Origin: an uncultured virus (IMG/VR IMGVR_UViG_3300020050_005616)
Taxonomy: Duplodnaviria; Heunggongvirae; Uroviricota; Caudoviricetes
Direction: 5' to 3' (one strand)
IMG/VR virus record: IMGVR_UViG_3300020050_005616
Length of the DNA stretch: 64,000 nucleotides
The translations under genes were made by a program, and so were the position numbers. Shown here one piece after another: positions 47,129 through 55,142 of this stretch. The notes beneath the pieces were generated by a model, which did not search any database, was not told the origin of the DNA, and saw only the letters and a list, made by a program, of their open reading frames with translations. The stretch's first letter is position 1. Every line of letters starts with the position of its first letter.

Positions 47129-48556
47129 ATGAATACATTCTGTAAAGCTAGTCCTTGTCCAATCATATTAAATTCGTCTTGCGTATTCTACGAAGGACCA
47201 AACTTAGTATGTACTGGTATATATACTAATGAAACCCTTGAATCTGTAATACAAAAAATTAATGCTGCATTATGTTCTGTTAGTGGTACTTCTGGCACTA
47301 GTGGTACTTCTGGTACTTCTGGCACTAGTGGTACTAGTGGAACTAGTGGAACTAGTGGTGTTATTATATTAGGAGGTGGTCCTTCTTCTTCTGTAAGAAT
47401 TGGTGTTGGTAATACTTCTGCTGGTGGACATAGTGCTTCATTAGGTGGTAGAAATAACACTGCTTCTGGTAATTGTGCAACAATTAGTGGAGGTTATTGT
47501 AACACTGCTTCTTGTAATTATTCAACAATTGGTGGTGGTTCTGGTAACACTGCTTCTGGTAGTCGTTCAACAGTAGGCGGTGGTGAATGTAATAGTGCTT
47601 CTGGTAGCACATCCACAATTGGTGGTGGTTCTTATAACAATGCGTCAGGATTGGCTTCAACCATTGGTGGTGGTGGTAAATACTTCCAGAATGGTGGGTG
47701 GTATGGTAAAGGTAATATTGCTTCTGGTACTTTTGCAACAATCGGTGGTGGTTATTATAATATTGCTTCTTTTGGATTTTCAACAATTGGAGGTGGTAAG
47801 CAAAACACTGCTTCTAATGGGTCAACAATTGGTGGTGGTGTTGGTAATATTGCTTCTGGTTCTTGTTCAACAATTGGTGGTGGTTCTAATACTGCTTCTG
47901 GGAATTGTTCAACTGTTGGTGGTGGTTATAGTAATACTGCTTCTGGTTATGCATCCACAATTGCTGGTGGTTATCAAAATACTGCTTCTTGTTGTTCTTC
48001 AACGATTGGGGGTGGTAATGGAAATGTTGCTTCTGATTTTTGTTCAACAATAAGTGGAGGTTATTGCAATACTGCTACTGGTTATTCTTCAACAGTTGGT
48101 GGTGGTTGTTGTAATGCTGCTTCTTGTATTGGTTCAACAATTGGTGGTGGTTTAAGTAATATTGCTTCTGGTTGTACTTCAACAGTTGGTGGCGGTTACG
48201 GTAGTGTTGCTTCTGGGGATTATTCCTCAATATTAGGCGGTTATACTAATACAGCCTCTCAATATGCTTCATCTGTCGGAGGAGGTAAAAATAATAATGC
48301 TTGTAGTTGTTTTTCAACAGTTGGTGGTGGTTTACAAAACACTGCTTCTGGTTATTATTCTGCAATATTAGGAGGGAAACTTAACAACACAAATTTTTGT
48401 GCTTGTGCAATGATAGTTGGTAGTAATATTACTGCTGATAGAGGTAATACTACATTTGTAAACAGCTTATCTATCAAAAATATTCCAACTTCTCCTGTTG
48501 GTTTACCAAGTGGTACTGTTTGGAGATTGGGCACATCAGTTTGTATTATACCCTAA
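47129..48556 (+). CDS. Fibre/adhesin: Cys-rich anchor, (GTS)n collagen-like segment and 14-aa Gly-rich beta-roll repeats (YadA-head-like)
   Basis: Repeats of ASGxxSTIGGGxxN; GTSGTS tract at about 47282-47358. Confidence 0.75.
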   Translation: MNTFCKASPCPIILNSSCVFYEGPNLVCTGIYTNETLESVIQKINAALCSVSGTSGTSGTSGTSGTSGTSGTSGTSGVIILGGGPSSSVRIGVGNTSAGGHSASLGGRNNTASGNCATISGGYCNTASCNYSTIGGGSGNTASGSRSTVGGGECNSASGSTSTIGGGSYNNASGLASTIGGGGKYFQNGGWYGKGNIASGTFATIGGGYYNIASFGFSTIGGGKQNTASNGSTIGGGVGNIASGSCSTIGGGSNTASGNCSTVGGGYSNTASGYASTIAGGYQNTASCCSSTIGGGNGNVASDFCSTISGGYCNTATGYSSTVGGGCCNAASCIGSTIGGGLSNIASGCTSTVGGGYGSVASGDYSSILGGYTNTASQYASSVGGGKNNNACSCFSTVGGGLQNTASGYYSAILGGKLNNTNFCACAMIVGSNITADRGNTTFVNSLSIKNIPTSPVGLPSGTVWRLGTSVCIIP

Positions 48557-48605: not shown

Positions 48606-48938
48606 ATGGAAAATTTCACAATTCATATCTTTGGATATGGCGAAACCCAAATCAATTCAAAAGAATTATCAGTAAAAGTATCTACAGATACATTAACTAC
48701 TGTAACTCCTTTAGTAGAAGCAATTTTTGCTAAAAAACCTGCAGATAACCCTGCTGTTATTTCTCCTTTTCATGCAATCAATATCTTTGGATATAAAGAT
48801 GTAAGATGGGTGAATAAAGATTCATTCACTGTAAAAGATGATGAAGAATTAAAACCTCTTATTGATGCTTTAATTGCTGAGTTACAAATTGCAAAAGATA
48901 ACTTAACTACTACTACTACAACTACTGTTGCTGTATAA
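48606..48938 (+). CDS. Hypothetical protein with poly-Thr tail
   Basis: 110 aa, internal repeat I(H/N)IFGY, ends TTTTTTTVAV. Confidence 0.7.
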   Translation: MENFTIHIFGYGETQINSKELSVKVSTDTLTTVTPLVEAIFAKKPADNPAVISPFHAINIFGYKDVRWVNKDSFTVKDDEELKPLIDALIAELQIAKDNLTTTTTTTVAV

Positions 48939-48966
48939 TAATTAGTTTTTTTGTATTAAATGTATG

Positions 48967-49002
48967 AAAAGGATAAGGTTTTATTAATCTTATCCTTTTT
49001 TT
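48967..49002 (+). terminator. Rho-independent terminator
   Basis: AAAAGGATAAG...CTTATCCTTTTTTT. Confidence 0.75.
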
Positions 49003-49005
49003 GTT

Positions 49006-49013
49006 TATCTTTG
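49006..49013 (+). promoter_or_regulatory. Bacteroidota -7 element for the sulfation operon
   Basis: TATCTTTG about 20 nt upstream of the ATG at 49033. Confidence 0.5.
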
Positions 49014-49032: not shown

Positions 49033-49854
49033 ATGAAGAAAAGAATTTTATTTAACTCCTCTCTTCCAAGAGCAGGATCTACTCTTCTGCAAAATATTAT
49101 TGCAGATAATCCAGATTTTCATTGTACACCTACATCAGGATTTTTAGAACTATTATTAAGTGCTAAGAATGCATATAATCATGGTGAAGCATTTAAAGCA
49201 CAAGATGCTGAACTAATGAGAAAAGCTTTCTTGGGGTTTTGTCACAATGCTATGCATGGATATTTTAATGCTCTTACAGACAAACCTTTTGTATTAGATA
49301 AGAATAGAGGTTGGGGAATACATTTTAATCTAGCTAGTGAGTTTATGGTGGCTCCTAAAGTGGTATGTATGATTAGAGATGTAAGAGCTGTATATTCTTC
49401 TATGGAGAAAAACTTTCGTAAGAATCCTACACAAGAGAATCATGTTCAAAATCCTAATCAATTAGTAGGTACCACTCTTCAAAAAAGAATTAATCTATGG
49501 GCTGATGGGCCACCAGTTGGTATATCTATGGATAGATTAAAAGATGTGTTTGATCAAGGATTAGATAAGAAGATCTTATTTATTCGTTATGAAGATTTAA
49601 TGGATTTTCCTGAACAAGAGATGAGACGTTTCTATGATTATATGGAACTTCCATATTATGAAGGACATAATTTTGAAACTGTTACACAACATACACATGA
49701 GAATGATGTTATCCATGGAATCTATGGTGATCATAAACTAAGACCAAAGTTTGAAAGAAAGCCTGATGATTTTGAAGAAGTCTTAGGATTTGAAAACTGT
49801 CAATCAATTAAAAACACATATCCTTGGTTCTTCAAGAAATTTGGATACGTATAA
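49033..49854 (+). CDS. PAPS-dependent sulfotransferase
   Basis: 5'-PSB loop SLPRAGSTLL, 3'-PB motif RDVRAVYSS, and IRYEDL...P. Confidence 0.85.
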   Translation: MKKRILFNSSLPRAGSTLLQNIIADNPDFHCTPTSGFLELLLSAKNAYNHGEAFKAQDAELMRKAFLGFCHNAMHGYFNALTDKPFVLDKNRGWGIHFNLASEFMVAPKVVCMIRDVRAVYSSMEKNFRKNPTQENHVQNPNQLVGTTLQKRINLWADGPPVGISMDRLKDVFDQGLDKKILFIRYEDLMDFPEQEMRRFYDYMELPYYEGHNFETVTQHTHENDVIHGIYGDHKLRPKFERKPDDFEEVLGFENCQSIKNTYPWFFKKFGYV

Positions 49855-49864
49855 ATCAACCAAC

Positions 49865-50737
49865 ATGAATATAATATTTGATATATCAGGAGGCTTAGGA
49901 AAGAATGTTCTTTCTACAGCTGTATTAAAAGCTATTAGAACTGAACATCCTAAAGCAAACGTAATTGTTCTTACATCTTATCCAGATGTATTTATTGGTA
50001 ATCCAAATATAAATAAGGTGTTAGTTCATGGAACTACAACAGGTATTTATAAAGATTATATAGGAGGTAAAGATAATACAAAGGTGTTCATCACTGATCC
50101 TTACACTACATCTGATTACTTAACAGAATCAAAACCTCTAATTGAGATATGGTGTAAACTGTGCGAGGTGCCCTATAATAATGAATTACCTGAATTGTTT
50201 ATATCTAAAACAGAAGTGGAATATTATGCTCCATTCTACCAATTAGATAAACCTATTATGGTTATTCAACCTAATGGTGGTCCTCAAGATCAATCATTAA
50301 AATATAGCTGGGTAAGAGATATTCCTTCTCCAGTAATCAATGATGTAATACAACATTACAAAAAAGATTATACAATTGTACATATCAAACGTGAGGATCA
50401 GATTATATATGAAGACACAACAGGAGCACTTGATTCATTCAGAAGTATAGCTGTTCTATTGTCTTTAGCACAAAGAAGACTTCTTATTGATTCATCAGCT
50501 ATGCATATTGCTGCAGCTCTAGGACTTCCAAGTCTTGTATGCTGGATAGGAACAAATCCAAAGGTGTTTGGTTATGAAATGCATGGTAATATAGAAGCTA
50601 ATGCTCCAGATAAAGAATTAAACTTTGATCATTCATACTTACAGAAGCTTCCTTTGTTTGAAGATATTTCTAGATGTCCTTATACAGAACTATCAAGTAT
50701 ATTCAATAGTGAAGATATAATTAAAGCATTGAAATAA
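49865..50737 (+). CDS. GT9-like (GT-B fold, heptosyltransferase-like) glycosyltransferase
   Basis: GGLGK, F.GNP.I and IDSSAMHIAAALGLPS...W..T.P..FGY motifs. Start set at the ATG at 49865. Confidence 0.75.
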   Translation: MNIIFDISGGLGKNVLSTAVLKAIRTEHPKANVIVLTSYPDVFIGNPNINKVLVHGTTTGIYKDYIGGKDNTKVFITDPYTTSDYLTESKPLIEIWCKLCEVPYNNELPELFISKTEVEYYAPFYQLDKPIMVIQPNGGPQDQSLKYSWVRDIPSPVINDVIQHYKKDYTIVHIKREDQIIYEDTTGALDSFRSIAVLLSLAQRRLLIDSSAMHIAAALGLPSLVCWIGTNPKVFGYEMHGNIEANAPDKELNFDHSYLQKLPLFEDISRCPYTELSSIFNSEDIIKALK

Positions 50738-51183
50738 TGGCAGTATATTGGTTTACAGGACAGCCTTCACATGGTAAAACAGTGTTGGCTAAATTGCTAA
50801 AAGAAGAACTACAAAAGCATGGGCAAGTATTTCATATAGATGGTGATGATCTAAGAGCTCTTACATTAAATAAAGACTTTTCTGAACAAGGAAGAATAGA
50901 TAATGTTAAGGGTGCACAGAAGATAGCACACTATTTATATAACCAAAATTATATAGTGGTGGTATCTGTTATCGCTCCTTATAGATGGCAAAGAGAAGAA
51001 CTAAAAACTATGCTTGGTGCAGATCTTGTGGAACTCTATGTTCATACAACCTCACCTAGAGAAAGAGATCATTTTAGTGTAAAAGATTATGAAGCTCCAT
51101 TAGAAAACTTTATAGATGTAGACACTACAGATGATACACCAGAAGAATCAATTGTTAAAATCTTAAATATTATTCATGGATAA
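50737..51183 (+). CDS. cysC: Adenylyl-sulfate (APS) kinase
   Basis: WFTGQPSHGKT P-loop, DGDDLR, FS..GR..NV, IAPY and YEAP motifs. Confidence 0.85.
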   Translation: MAVYWFTGQPSHGKTVLAKLLKEELQKHGQVFHIDGDDLRALTLNKDFSEQGRIDNVKGAQKIAHYLYNQNYIVVVSVIAPYRWQREELKTMLGADLVELYVHTTSPRERDHFSVKDYEAPLENFIDVDTTDDTPEESIVKILNIIHG

Positions 51184-51514
51184 GAAAAACACTATATTTT
51201 GTGATATTGATGGTACTATTTTTAAATATCGTAAATTTGAAACATATAAAACATCAAAAGCTGAATCTATATCTTCAACTGTAGAATATTTAAACGAACA
51301 AAATAAGAAAGGTCACATGATTGTTTTAACAACAGCTAGACCTGATTATCTTCTTGAACATACAATTTGGGAATTAGAAAATAATTTAATACCTTATCAT
51401 AAACTAATAATGGGTATTGAAAGAGGGCCTAGATATTTAATTAATGATATGGATCCTAAAAAAGAAGGTGAAAGAGCAATAGCAGTAAATTTAATAAGAG
51501 ATCAAGGATTTTAA
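51176..51514 (+). CDS. Small cap-less HAD-superfamily phosphatase
   Basis: CDIDGT, LTTAR and INDM motifs. Confidence 0.75.
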   Translation: MDKKNTIFCDIDGTIFKYRKFETYKTSKAESISSTVEYLNEQNKKGHMIVLTTARPDYLLEHTIWELENNLIPYHKLIMGIERGPRYLINDMDPKKEGERAIAVNLIRDQGF

Positions 51515-51526
51515 AAATAAAAACAT

Positions 51527-51961
51527 ATGGAAAATTGGAGTAAAAAAGTACACGTAGAATCATCAATTCCTTCTAAGGAAGGACAGTTTGCAATGTTTGT
51601 TGGTCGTTGGCAACCATTGCACGAAAGCCATATAAAACTATTTCAACAAGCAGTTTTAGAGGGAAAAAATATTTTAATATGTGTTCGAGATGGAGAGGTA
51701 AATGATAAAAACCCTTATACCGCAAAACAAGTAAAAAAAGCAATAAAGGGTATGAGTAAAAATTGGTGGACAGAGGATATTTTACCTTTAATAGAGGAAT
51801 TAAAACCAAAAGTGAAAGTAATAATAATACCAGATATTGAATCGGTTAATTTTGGCAGAGGTGTTGGATATGACATTGTAGAGTATGTTCCACCAACAGA
51901 AATTGCTGATATATCTGCTACAAAGATTAGAGAGCAAATGCGTAAAGATGGTGAGTTATGA
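51527..51961 (+). CDS. HIGH-family nucleotidyltransferase (cytidylyltransferase-like)
   Basis: GRWQPLHESH (HxxH), NPY and ISATKIR motifs. Confidence 0.75.
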   Translation: MENWSKKVHVESSIPSKEGQFAMFVGRWQPLHESHIKLFQQAVLEGKNILICVRDGEVNDKNPYTAKQVKKAIKGMSKNWWTEDILPLIEELKPKVKVIIIPDIESVNFGRGVGYDIVEYVPPTEIADISATKIREQMRKDGEL

Positions 51962-52167
51962 ATGTAGAAAAGAAAAGACACATAGCTAAAACTGTAAGCT
52001 ATAGATTACTTAGCACACTAATTGGATTTGCAATCATGTTAGTTATAACAGGATCATTAAAGATGGGAGCTGCATTTGGTGTAGTAGAATTACTCTATAA
52101 ACCTGTACAATATTACATCCATGAAAGGATATGGTACAGATGGATTAAATATGGATTAAAAAATTAA
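51958..52167 (+). CDS. DUF2061-like small membrane protein
   Basis: RH.AKT.SYR and YY.HER.W motifs. Confidence 0.75.
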   Translation: MNVEKKRHIAKTVSYRLLSTLIGFAIMLVITGSLKMGAAFGVVELLYKPVQYYIHERIWYRWIKYGLKN

Positions 52168-52170
52168 AAG

Positions 52171-52194
52171 AAAACCCTCTACATGAGGGTTTTT
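52171..52194. terminator. Bidirectional terminator between convergent genes
   Basis: AAAACCCTC-TACAT-GAGGGTTTTT. Confidence 0.7.
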
Positions 52195-55142
52195 ATTTGT
52201 TCTATCACCATGTCTGGTGTTATACTCTTTTGACATTCAAACTGTCTCTCTGTGTCTTTATGAACAGGGCACCAGTCCCAATCTCCTTTATCAAACTTAT
52301 ATTTTGGATCATTCCAACATCCATGGCACACATTTGTATTCACTGGTCTTAAACATTCAAACTCGTGATGCTTATCAGTGAAGTTAGAGATCATTATCAC
52401 TTCTTTACCAAGGCCCCAAGCTAACCAGCTAAGCCCACTAGATAGTCCTATAAAGAACTTGCTTTCATCAATAACACGCATAGTGTTAGTCATTGAGGTG
52501 TCAAGTAATCCTTGACAGTTGTCAAATGGATTTTTTTCTAATGATGTATTTCTCACTGTATATCCTTGACCATGTATATAGTTAATCACCTCTTGCCAAT
52601 TCTCTCTGGTCCAGAACTTACATCCTGCAGTACTATTAGTTGCAATAGTTATATACATACCTTGCTCATGTGATTTTTTATATGCAAGTCTTGGCTTGAT
52701 TTCTTTATAAGGAAGACCTAGAATGTTTGTAGCTGTTTGCTGAAGAGGAATTGTATTAGGGAGAGTAGGTTCTTTGTGTTCATTATAGAACCAACCTATT
52801 TTATACATTCCATATATATTGTTAACTACAGTTCCTGGAGCTACAAACTCTAGCATTGGATATTCCTTTTCAAACAAGAAGTTCTTGAATGTACTTACAA
52901 TCACCTCACAGTTGTGTAAACATCTAAACTCTTCTACATAAGGCATCCAAGCTATTGTATCTCCTAGAGATGAGCTATCAAAAGCAATATACACTCTTCT
53001 ACCTTCTAGATTCAAAAACTTATTATACACTTCCACACCATCTTTGTACACAATAGTTTGCCACTTAGTGTAATATTCTCTACTAAGTTTTATCCAATGG
53101 TTGCACTTTATTTTATCATAATGAACTAACTTTTCACCATCATAAAACTCTACATAAAATTCACTGGTAGATGTACCAGTTATCTCTAAGAATGGTTGGC
53201 CTACGAAGTGTTGTGTTATATTATAATCATTTATGTCATTTTTGTGTGGAATAACAGACATTACATTTTTATATAAGTTTGCATGAAGTTTACCAAAAAC
53301 TTCATGCGTATTATCTGTTGGAACATCATATTTCATTAGTAGTCCCAGTATTGGAGAGTTTAAGTCTACACTCTCTGTTATATAATTAGTATACATATCT
53401 TTATATTGTGGAAGATTTTTAGCTATTATAGGTAGGCCATAACTTACAGCCTCTTTAAGTACAATTGGATTACATTCCCATGTGCTGTTAAACATAAATA
53501 CATCAGCAGCTAACATAAAATGATGAATGTCATTTCGTTCTCCCCATATCTTTACATTCTCAGGTAGATCTTTCATTAAAGGTTCCCAGTAGTGTTTGAA
53601 GTTACCAGCTTGGTTACCTATAAAGTGAAACATCACATTAGGATATTTACGAGCAATAGCTAATCCTTCAGCTTGATTCTTACCAGGAGTCCAAAGTCCT
53701 ACATTTATAACATGTCTACCACCAAGACTCATACCTAAAAGTTCTTTATACTGTCTCTTTAATGTCTTAGATACTGGTTCTTTGTCTATAGGATATTCAA
53801 TTACTTCTTTATATCCATCAAGGTTAGCAAATGTATCTACATGATAAGGAGTACAGAATGCATATGCATCAGGTGTGAATATTTTACTAGCAGGATCAAA
53901 AGATACATCATGACATGTTTCTACTATTCTATACTTTCTACTAGGAGAATATAGTTTAGTAATCATCTCTCTATCCATTCTCTCAGACATTTCATCTATA
54001 TGAATAACATCTGGTTGCCATCCATCTATTATATCAAACAGTTTCATTTTATCTTCCCATAGTGTATGGAAGTGTGGATCTACAATATCCATGATTTGAT
54101 TTCTTTGTACAACATAATCAATACCATGACATTGATATTCTACAACAAAAATCTCTACATCTGTATTAGCTTGTAATGCCTCTATTCTTTTAAGAAGAAA
54201 CTGTGGCATACCTCCTGTAGATAGATGAGGTGCAAGGAACATCACTCTCATAGATTTAGACATCTTAGACATTATTTTAGACATTACAATAGGATCTTTC
54301 TCTCCATGTAAGAATAACAATTGTTCTTTACTCTCTGGTAGTTTAAACCAAGGCTTAACCATTGTTCCCCAATTATTCTCTTCATAAATCTGATCTAGTT
54401 TATCAAGACTAGCATTAGTGTAAATATATGGAAGCCCTATATGTATATCATGTTTCCATAGAAGAACATTAAGAATAGTTTCTTCGTGATAGGGAGCATA
54501 GTGTTGTGGATTTTTAAGAATGATAGGATGATTACACATCCAACTCCATTCATCTAAAAAGTTTATAGTGTTTGCACCAGCTACAAAATAACCTGTTTGT
54601 CTGTATTTATTTCTTCTCTCTTGAGAAACATTGAATAATTGACATGCTGGATATTCTAATGTTTCATGAGCAGTGGTTCCTCCTCTACCATTAATAAATA
54701 AATAATCATATATACCCTCTACAAAATATGGATGTCCACATTCAGTATTATACATATCAAATATACTATCTATATATGATGTAGCTACACTATCAGAATC
54801 TACATAACATATTGTATTAGCAAAGTGTTCAAGAGCATGCTTTACAATAAGAGGCCTTTGTATTAATAGATTGTATATTCGAGAATCATCTCTATCTATA
54901 TAAGCTTGTATAGGTAAGTCTTCAATGTCACATTCCCAATATACAGCATTAGCTCCAGGAACCTCACTGTGACAATTTAACATATAAACTGTAATTGGTA
55001 TATTACTCACCTTATTAATACTCTCTACAGCTATACATACAGTATTATAATAAGATGCATTTGCATATAATACGTACATTTTTTCCTCTTTTATACGTAC
55101 ATCCGTATAATCTTTATTTTTGGATATAGAACTATGTGACAT
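52179..55142 (-). CDS. Three-domain glycosyltransferase: GT-A (DxD), GT4-like GT-B, and Aah/TibC-like autotransporter O-heptosyltransferase domain
   Basis: YVDSD; APHLSTGGMPQ, KNQ and E..PIVLKEA...GLP; SSSLGDTIAW.PY, FIGLSSGLSWLAW, CHGCWN and WCP.HK...QFEC.K.IT. Confidence 0.8.
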   Translation of the reverse strand: MSHSSISKNKDYTDVRIKEEKMYVLYANASYYNTVCIAVESINKVSNIPITVYMLNCHSEVPGANAVYWECDIEDLPIQAYIDRDDSRIYNLLIQRPLIVKHALEHFANTICYVDSDSVATSYIDSIFDMYNTECGHPYFVEGIYDYLFINGRGGTTAHETLEYPACQLFNVSQERRNKYRQTGYFVAGANTINFLDEWSWMCNHPIILKNPQHYAPYHEETILNVLLWKHDIHIGLPYIYTNASLDKLDQIYEENNWGTMVKPWFKLPESKEQLLFLHGEKDPIVMSKIMSKMSKSMRVMFLAPHLSTGGMPQFLLKRIEALQANTDVEIFVVEYQCHGIDYVVQRNQIMDIVDPHFHTLWEDKMKLFDIIDGWQPDVIHIDEMSERMDREMITKLYSPSRKYRIVETCHDVSFDPASKIFTPDAYAFCTPYHVDTFANLDGYKEVIEYPIDKEPVSKTLKRQYKELLGMSLGGRHVINVGLWTPGKNQAEGLAIARKYPNVMFHFIGNQAGNFKHYWEPLMKDLPENVKIWGERNDIHHFMLAADVFMFNSTWECNPIVLKEAVSYGLPIIAKNLPQYKDMYTNYITESVDLNSPILGLLMKYDVPTDNTHEVFGKLHANLYKNVMSVIPHKNDINDYNITQHFVGQPFLEITGTSTSEFYVEFYDGEKLVHYDKIKCNHWIKLSREYYTKWQTIVYKDGVEVYNKFLNLEGRRVYIAFDSSSLGDTIAWMPYVEEFRCLHNCEVIVSTFKNFLFEKEYPMLEFVAPGTVVNNIYGMYKIGWFYNEHKEPTLPNTIPLQQTATNILGLPYKEIKPRLAYKKSHEQGMYITIATNSTAGCKFWTRENWQEVINYIHGQGYTVRNTSLEKNPFDNCQGLLDTSMTNTMRVIDESKFFIGLSSGLSWLAWGLGKEVIMISNFTDKHHEFECLRPVNTNVCHGCWNDPKYKFDKGDWDWCPVHKDTERQFECQKSITPDMVIEQIKTLM

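Follow-up and report, generated by a model that had tools for sequence, protein, structure and literature searches.

The window analyzed here is the 64,000-nucleotide (nt) IMG/VR record IMGVR_UViG_3300020050_005616 from an uncultured virus of the Caudoviricetes, and PHROG head and tail matches identify it as a tailed phage. Between positions 49,033 and 52,167 it carries a compact cassette of six genes for sulfation by means of 3'-phosphoadenosine 5'-phosphosulfate (PAPS), which is made from adenosine 5'-phosphosulfate (APS) by APS kinase (Table 1). One of the genes encodes a protein of only 144 amino acids (aa). As judged from its sequence and gene neighborhoods, this small enzyme probably belongs to a third family of ATP sulfurylases, derived from nicotinamide mononucleotide (NMN) adenylyltransferases (NMNATs).

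Table 1. Features of the sulfation cassette and its surroundings (positions in the window).
Feature	Position	Strand	Remarks
Context: Ser/Gly/Thr-rich adhesin-repeat (UspA1-type) fibre-like protein	47129..48556	+	candidate acceptor
Terminator-like hairpin	48966..49000	+	15 pairs and T run; ends upstream fibre/virion genes
Probable Bacteroidota-type promoter -7 element TATCTTTG	49006..49013	+	27 nt 5' of first ATG
PAPS-dependent sulfotransferase	49033..49854	+	273 aa; PAPS-binding motifs intact; nearest solved fold tyrosylprotein sulfotransferase
GT9-like glycosyltransferase	49865..50737	+	290 aa; Pfam match weak, below cut-off
APS kinase, shortened lid	50737..51183	+	148 aa; G8, G13-K14, D37, R40, R53, P81 kept
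Small capless HAD phosphatase	51176..51514	+	112 aa; DIDGT, TTARP; accessory
NMNAT-derived HIGH nucleotidyltransferase, candidate minimal ATP sulfurylase	51527..51961	+	144 aa
DUF2061 small membrane protein	51958..52167	+	69 aa
Terminator-like hairpin	52170..52194	.	on both strands; separates cassette from convergent glycosyltransferase gene
Context: multi-domain glycosyltransferase	52179..55142	-	987 aa; GT4 and TibC/Aah-type heptosyltransferase domains

A preliminary description of this DNA had listed six tightly packed genes. The open reading frame (ORF) check returned all six at the same positions, all read from the + strand. No junction between neighbors spans more than 12 nt (in order a 10-nt gap, a 1-nt overlap, an 8-nt overlap, a 12-nt gap and a 4-nt overlap). 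Pfam scores are 59 bits for the sulfotransferase (PF13469, cut-off 27), 73.5 for the APS kinase (PF01583, cut-off 21.1), 29 for the haloacid dehalogenase (HAD) phosphatase, 25.5 for the small enzyme (CTP_transf_like, with H32-E-S-H35) and 61.4 for the DUF2061 protein. The GT9-like protein reaches 16.8 bits with PF01075, below the cut-off of 22. Its gene probably starts at ATG 49865 rather than at TTG 49790, because its relatives are 289–292 aa long. In related cassettes DUF2061 is also found fused to the nucleotidyltransferase (P0033) or to the APS kinase (L085). Profile searches of the six ORFs gave no match to Sat or CysD/CysN, including TIGR02039 (CysD) and a GTPase partner, in agreement with the preliminary description.

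The preliminary description gave the unit its own promoter and terminator. Terminator-like hairpins flank the cassette (seven in the window, 2.4 expected), and a sigma-70 scan of the window gave 29 sites where 32 were expected, none of them upstream of 49033. A probable promoter element is instead TATCTTTG, which matches the Bacteroidota -7 consensus. This motif is enriched in the window (13 copies vs 5.7 expected), is preserved at -27 in five close relatives and occurs in 14 of 59 distinct upstream regions as compared to 23 of 295 control windows. A Bacteroidota host would fit the small enzyme's closest cellular relatives, which are Crocinitomicaceae.

The convergent glycosyltransferase gene has its own upstream TATCTTTG. 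The C-terminal TibC/Aah heptosyltransferase domain of its product scores 249.5 bits with TIGR04414 (cut-off 200), and related proteins are about 150–160 aa longer at the N-terminus. On the other side of the cassette, positions 48606–48938 encode a 110-aa protein of no known family with a C-terminal run of seven threonines; it is encoded close to the sulfotransferase in 32 of 80 loci.

Linkage to APS kinase and near-exclusion of known sulfurylases

Among representatives clustered at 50% identity, 920 are related to the small enzyme at E ≤ 0.001. The preliminary description had asked for its homologues to be examined for linkage or fusion to cysC, and such linkage was found in the viral, the cellular and the longer-homologue sets. 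Of 1763 longer homologues the best 120 were classified, and 96 of these proved to be APS-kinase fusions, in which the kinase forms the N-terminal part 82 times and the C-terminal part 14 times. The other 24 comprise 22 proteins with endonuclease-like extensions (assigned by eye), one HAD fusion (P0224) and one unexplained case. A kinase domain is carried by 29 of 150 representatives, and in one PHROG family the first half matches the window's kinase and the second half the small enzyme. The 54 viral loci (51 from IMG/VR and three from GenBank phages, many of them near-duplicates) contain 33 kinase-fused and 14 adjacent cases, and the seven without a kinase are all cut at a contig end. For 54 cellular loci the corresponding figures are 21 fused, 17 near and 16 alone, i.e. 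38 of 54 are linked to an APS kinase. NMNAT control loci from the same scan have an APS kinase within 8 kb in none of 26 cases. Several of the kinases linked to the small enzyme score above the curated TIGR00455 threshold for CysC. CysQ-like, sulfotransferase, sulfatase/TauE or arylsulfotransferase genes adjoin 13 of 26 scanned cellular loci, a proportion that has no background rate for comparison; four of five CysQ candidates near cellular loci pass the cut-off.

The genomes behind 50 of the 54 cellular loci were searched for the known enzymes. An APS kinase is encoded in 48 of them, Sat in one and a CysD-like gene in four, each of these below the cut-off and beside a CysN-like gene; 45 of the 50 have neither Sat nor CysD. 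The 16 stand-alone cases include 14 from Dadabacteria-like genomes, among which 13 carry a canonical cysC elsewhere and none carries Sat or CysD; eight of these are single-chromosome assemblies. Two control samples were drawn from the taxa of individual carriers. The first consisted of 251 genomes from the order of G010 (Flavobacteriales by record title), 112 of them with an APS kinase. Here CysD is present in none of nine carriers of the small enzyme vs 101 of 103 non-carriers, and Sat in no genome. In the second sample, 200 genomes from the phylum of G016 (Omnitrophota), 88 have an APS kinase, and Sat or CysD accompanies it in two of seven carriers vs 72 of 81 non-carriers. In both double carriers a second APS kinase lies within 2 kb on the Sat contig. 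The exclusion thus runs in the same direction in both taxa. Linkage or fusion to cysC together with the nearly complete exclusion of Sat and CysD in cellular genomes lends good support to the earlier suggestion that the 144-aa protein may stand in for ATP sulfurylase. In various bacteria and archaea, too, the family seems to take the place of the two known sulfurylases.

A further survey, seeded with the window's sulfotransferase, yielded 80 loci. A GT9-like gene is present in 71 of them, a fibre-like gene in 67 (by BLAST with a repetitive query), APS kinase in 60, DUF2061 in 49, the small enzyme in 46 and the HAD in two. Kinase and small enzyme occur together in 45 loci, the enzyme without the kinase in one and neither in 19; in six of these 19 records the small enzyme is located elsewhere, each time beside a kinase.

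Several forms of the family deserve separate mention. The in-frame endonuclease-like N-terminal extension is about 180 aa long (L194:7634-8599; L225:1853-2815; P0151-P0167) and suggests repeated insertion of a homing endonuclease at the start of the small enzyme. Marine viral contigs (L016-L051) carry a kinase-enzyme fusion of about 267 aa 5' of genes resembling S-adenosylmethionine synthetase and adenine phosphoribosyltransferase (by eye). Among cultured phages, the small enzyme is matched in Xylella phages Bacata and Salvo, Stenotrophomonas phage DLP6 and Clavibacter phage 33, and the kinase fusion is present in the three cultured phages inspected (L052-L054). In Inquilinus limosus and a Rhodospirillaceae isolate the fusion adjoins arylsulfotransferase (ASST) genes (L108:7551-8333; L104:7551-8354). 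In a Bacteroidetes genome (L067:7606-8004) cysC is separated from the small enzyme by another, distinct cytidylyltransferase-like gene. One viral record (L265-L266; G328:C1:84587-84983) contains the small enzyme as two fragments, preceded by kinase and HAD genes that are intact. Canonical Sat-APS-kinase fusions were also seen in viral contigs, many of them labelled GVMAG (L179:4190-6987; L267-L287).

Descent of the small enzyme and competing readings

The motifs of the 144-aa enzyme are G26-R27-x-Q29-P30-x-H32-x-x-H35, R54, N62-P63, G110-R111-G-V-G114-Y115 and S130-x-T132-x-x-R135. In 179 distinct domains G26, R27, H32, H35, R54, P63, G110, R111, V113, G114, S130, T132 and R135 are 96–100% conserved, with 98% for each histidine of the HxxH motif and 97–99% for the catalytic residues H32, H35, S130, T132 and R135. 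The GRFQPxHxxH motif and the fold are those of archaeal/NadM NMNATs. The scores with the NMNAT profiles, however, remain below the curated cut-offs (NF002243, 28.3 vs 127 bits; TIGR01527, 19.1 vs 181.2 bits). In the hhalign alignment an NMNAT segment of about 25 residues is gapped exactly at the GRGVGY of the family, and Arg54 is aligned with the NMNAT IGS. The missing segment follows IPDI and carries, in NMNATs, the tryptophan helix that binds nicotinamide. A tree of 64 family and 24 NMNAT rows, from which Sat was omitted as unalignable, places the family on one side of a branch with a support of 97/92. By these sequence comparisons, the family is an offshoot of NMNAT and separate from it.

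The preliminary description had referred to the catalytic domain of Sat as a member of the HIGH superfamily. Descent from that domain is not borne out by hhalign and the tree, which point to an archaeal-type NMNAT/NadM instead, and a "trimmed Sat" was rejected on the basis of the PF01747, fold, hhalign and tree results. PF01747 (Sat) has no match to the window's protein at E ≤ 0.1 and is matched weakly by 30 of 76 family members (best E 6.4e-6). By eye, GRGVG resembles the GRD loop of Sat, but hhalign aligned the two nowhere. A Foldseek search with the small enzyme gave no match at E ≤ 0.001, and matches to PPR proteins were dismissed as repeat noise.

Family members bear the automatic database names cytidylyltransferase-like, (putative) NMNAT or adenylylsulfate kinase. 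The first two, as well as archaeal NMNATs being the best profile and structure matches, would suit a divergent adenylyltransferase of NMN or nicotinic acid mononucleotide, or an ordinary HIGH transferase (PPAT, cytidylyltransferase), that is a mere passenger beside cysC. We regard this as decidedly improbable in view of the 28 bits reached out of the 127 set as the NMNAT cut-off, the lost segment, the separate clade and the absence of APS kinase from the neighborhood of true NMNATs. Moreover, a passenger would leave both the fusion in either order and the exclusion of CysD unexplained.

A number of results weigh against a sulfurylase function. In alignment and fold the enzyme is nearer to NMNAT than to Sat: hhalign aligns it with archaeal NMNAT end to end (99.9%) and with Sat over 55 C-terminal columns alone (78.7%). 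The predicted model (pLDDT, the predicted local distance difference test, 89.9) fits NMNAT 1f9a best (Z 9.5, r.m.s.d. 3.0, 111 aligned residues), with Sat 1v47 (Z 6.9) being one among many HIGH enzymes. The QxRN motif and the N-terminal PUA_2 domain of Sat, for which the Sat of L179 served as comparison, are absent from the protein, which has GRWQP instead. At the genome level, a known sulfurylase is also present in five of the 50 carriers, cysD/cysN adjoin the cellular kinase fusion in L089, no APS kinase was detected in two carriers, and nine of the 81 non-carrier Omnitrophota have cysC but none of the three sulfurylase kinds. The Fisher p-values for the exclusion (1e-11 in Flavobacteriales, 9e-4 in Omnitrophota) overrate the independence of the carriers, which are closely related within each taxon. 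Two carriers per control sample were known beforehand, and most of the genomes are incomplete metagenome-assembled genomes. In the phage survey, 15 of the 80 loci have the kinase without the small enzyme, which is found nowhere else in these records, three of them 99–100% complete. Finally, the window's kinase passes the Pfam cut-off but reaches only 73.1 bits with TIGR00455 (cut-off 138.7).

Since the kinase-only loci include records rated 99–100% complete, the pathway is not always self-contained, contrary to the preliminary description; for the family as a whole that reading fails, and so some phages would rely on APS or PAPS of the host. Eleven of the 15 loci were inspected and contained no Sat or CysD in the slot of the enzyme, so that replacement by either is unsupported there. 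Kinases without the small enzyme, in phages as well as in the genomes with cysC but none of the three enzymes, would also be compatible with a non-catalytic kinase partner, or an enzyme that consumes or recycles APS, the APS itself being supplied by the host or by some unrecognised enzyme. The near-invariance of the catalytic residues argues against such a role, as do the single-chromosome Dadabacteria-like assemblies with cysC and no other detectable source of APS, and we consider it highly improbable.

The best matches of the window's kinase in the PDB are all APS kinases. G8, G13, K14, R40, R53 and P81 are present in 46 of 46 aligned kinases and D37 in 44; these residues presumably serve the P-loop, the DGD motif, the two substrate arginines and the SPY proline. 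The lid (RDPKGLY...GFTG) is shortened, and for window-type kinases the TIGR00455 and NF004041 scores are nearly equal and all below the cut-off. By analogy with the phosphoramidate pathway of Campylobacter, whose cytidine diphosphoramidate kinase Cj1415 we take to be a CysC homologue, a kinase of this kind leaves room for another nucleotide substrate. In that case a phosphate-type or phosphoramidate group would be nucleotidylated by the small enzyme, and the kinase with its short lid would then phosphorylate the 3'-OH of the product. A 3'-phospho-CDP-amidate intermediate is indeed described for the Campylobacter capsule in PMC6429109. Nevertheless, members of the family are fused to or located beside kinases that clearly exceed the CysC cut-off, sit by CysQ and PAPS-dependent sulfotransferases and alternate with CysD/Sat, and the neighboring sulfotransferase of the window has intact PAPS motifs. 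Another anion as substrate is improbable for these reasons, and sulfate remains our preferred assignment.

Sulfotransferase, acceptor and phosphatase

By its motifs, Pfam score and fold, the first protein of the cassette is a PAPS-dependent sulfotransferase. P12, R13, G15, S16, R115 and S123 are invariant in 21 sequences, i.e. the 5'-phosphosulfate-binding loop (PRxGST) and the 3'-phosphate-binding motif (R...S) are intact. The predicted model (pLDDT 91.5) is closest to tyrosylprotein sulfotransferases (TPSTs; Z 20.5, 20.2 and 19.8, next non-TPST 15.5), and TPSTs are the best profile matches as well (E 5e-9). TPSTs use a catalytic glutamate; their CGEE segment aligns with TPTS in the phage protein, where the glutamate is not in place.

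The GT9-like gene stands beside the sulfotransferase in the 71 loci mentioned above, and the profile of its family gave no sequence match in the PDB. Because GT9-like and fibre genes are the usual neighbors and the fold is TPST-like, the likeliest acceptor would be a virion fibre protein or its glycan, to which we assign an even chance. In marine and Xanthomonadales phages a window-type sulfotransferase is missing from the neighborhood of many kinase-enzyme fusions, and PAPS may be put to other uses there.

The HAD is optional, because the closest relative found with the small enzyme (L001, 86% identity) lacks it. With two of 80 sulfotransferase loci and no match in loci L001-L134, it was rejected as a core part of the cassette. 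Its usual position is between the APS kinase and the small nucleotidyltransferase, to which it is fused in P0224. Of 22 HAD loci, 16 contain the kinase as well as the small enzyme, and one has a kinase and ends at the contig edge. A further one (L179) has the HAD flanked by a sulfotransferase and a canonical Sat-APS-kinase fusion, and the remaining four lack both kinase and small enzyme. The HAD, for which the preliminary description proposed PAP phosphatase or pyrophosphatase activity, tracks PAPS genes, but its part is an accessory one. The nearest solved relative is Pnkp1 (E 1.4e-4), and in a test for CysQ the 112-aa protein matched HAD and not the inositol-monophosphatase family. The HAD possibly hydrolyzes 3'-phosphoadenosine 5'-phosphate (PAP) or pyrophosphate (PPi), at slightly less than an even chance. 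In related cassettes its slot is often taken by a small protein without a Pfam match (77–110 aa, starting with IRYN/IRFN...W; L003:6405-6638, L002:5679-5990, L011:5752-5991), which is fused to DUF2061 in L158, L241 and L257.

Proposed pathway and comparison with known systems

Based on these results we propose the following pathway. ATP would be held by the HxxH and ISAT motifs, the conservation of which is observed, and sulfate would probably be bound by R54, R111 and the glycine loop GRGVGY. At the HxxH/ISAT site ATP and sulfate would react to APS and PPi. This step is thermodynamically unfavorable and would be pulled by the neighboring kinase, which converts APS to PAPS. The sulfotransferase would spend PAPS on an acceptor made by the phage, either the fibre protein or a sugar added by the GT9-like enzyme, and the optional HAD would remove PAP or PPi. 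The complete picture of an NMNAT-derived sulfurylase class of 110–145 residues in phages and many bacteria and archaea, of TPST-like sulfation of the phage's own fibre or its sugar, and of a HAD recycling PAP is possible but rather doubtful in all its parts together.

A search of the full-text literature, with incomplete coverage of subscription titles and supplements outside its scope, returned no description of the small-enzyme family. A paper on viral auxiliary metabolic genes (PMC9301287) deals, in its accessible part, with cysH and not with this enzyme. The family is real and probably undescribed; the reaction and the kind of pathway are known. The families searched comprise two kinds of ATP sulfurylase, Sat and CysD/CysN. 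If our assignment is true, a third kind of one-third the size of Sat joins them and fills the sulfurylase gap in the cysC genomes with neither enzyme (45 of 50 carriers). It would likewise correct the cytidylyltransferase and NMNAT annotations and illustrate a switch of substrate from NMN to sulfate. With a length of about 250 residues, the fused forms would rank as the smallest PAPS synthases and could be of service in enzymatic sulfation. If the fibre is the acceptor, phages sulfate their own virions.

With Sat (PF01747; PDB entries 1v47 and 1i2d) the small enzyme shares the HIGH-superfamily fold, two catalytic histidines, an ISxT motif and independence from a GTPase partner. However, Sat has about 350–400 aa as compared to about 110–145 aa here, and only Sat has the PUA domain and QxRN. 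The pairing or fusion with the kinase, in either order, is similar to Sat-APS-kinase fusions such as human PAPSS1 (1x6v) and the Aquifex enzyme (2gks). In human PAPSS two histidines (HNGH) are needed for activity according to PMC11697783, and they match the pair in the small enzyme. Archaeal/NadM NMNATs (MJ0541, 1f9a; M. thermautotrophicus, 1ej2; NF002243, TIGR01527) have the GR[WF]QPxHxxH, NP, IPD and ISAT motifs in common with the family, which differs by the deletion of about 25 residues leading to GRGVGY, by Arg54 in place of IGS, by forming its own clade and by its sulfur-gene context. CysD is of a different fold and requires a GTPase. Its reaction is the one proposed here, and in Flavobacteriales the small gene lies 3' of cysC where other genomes carry cysD. 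In its proposed function the 144-aa enzyme would work like Sat and yet fall outside Sat, CysD and NMNAT by the membership tests of all three.

For the sulfotransferase, the closest known enzymes are TPST1/2 (5wri, 3ap3; Z 20.5, r.m.s.d. 3.6, 245 aligned residues), at only 15% identity. The rhizobial nodPQ-nodH genes form a dedicated module of PAPS synthesis plus sulfotransferase. The cassette resembles them in the local supply of PAPS beside a sulfotransferase and differs in that the module here is viral and located among fibre genes.

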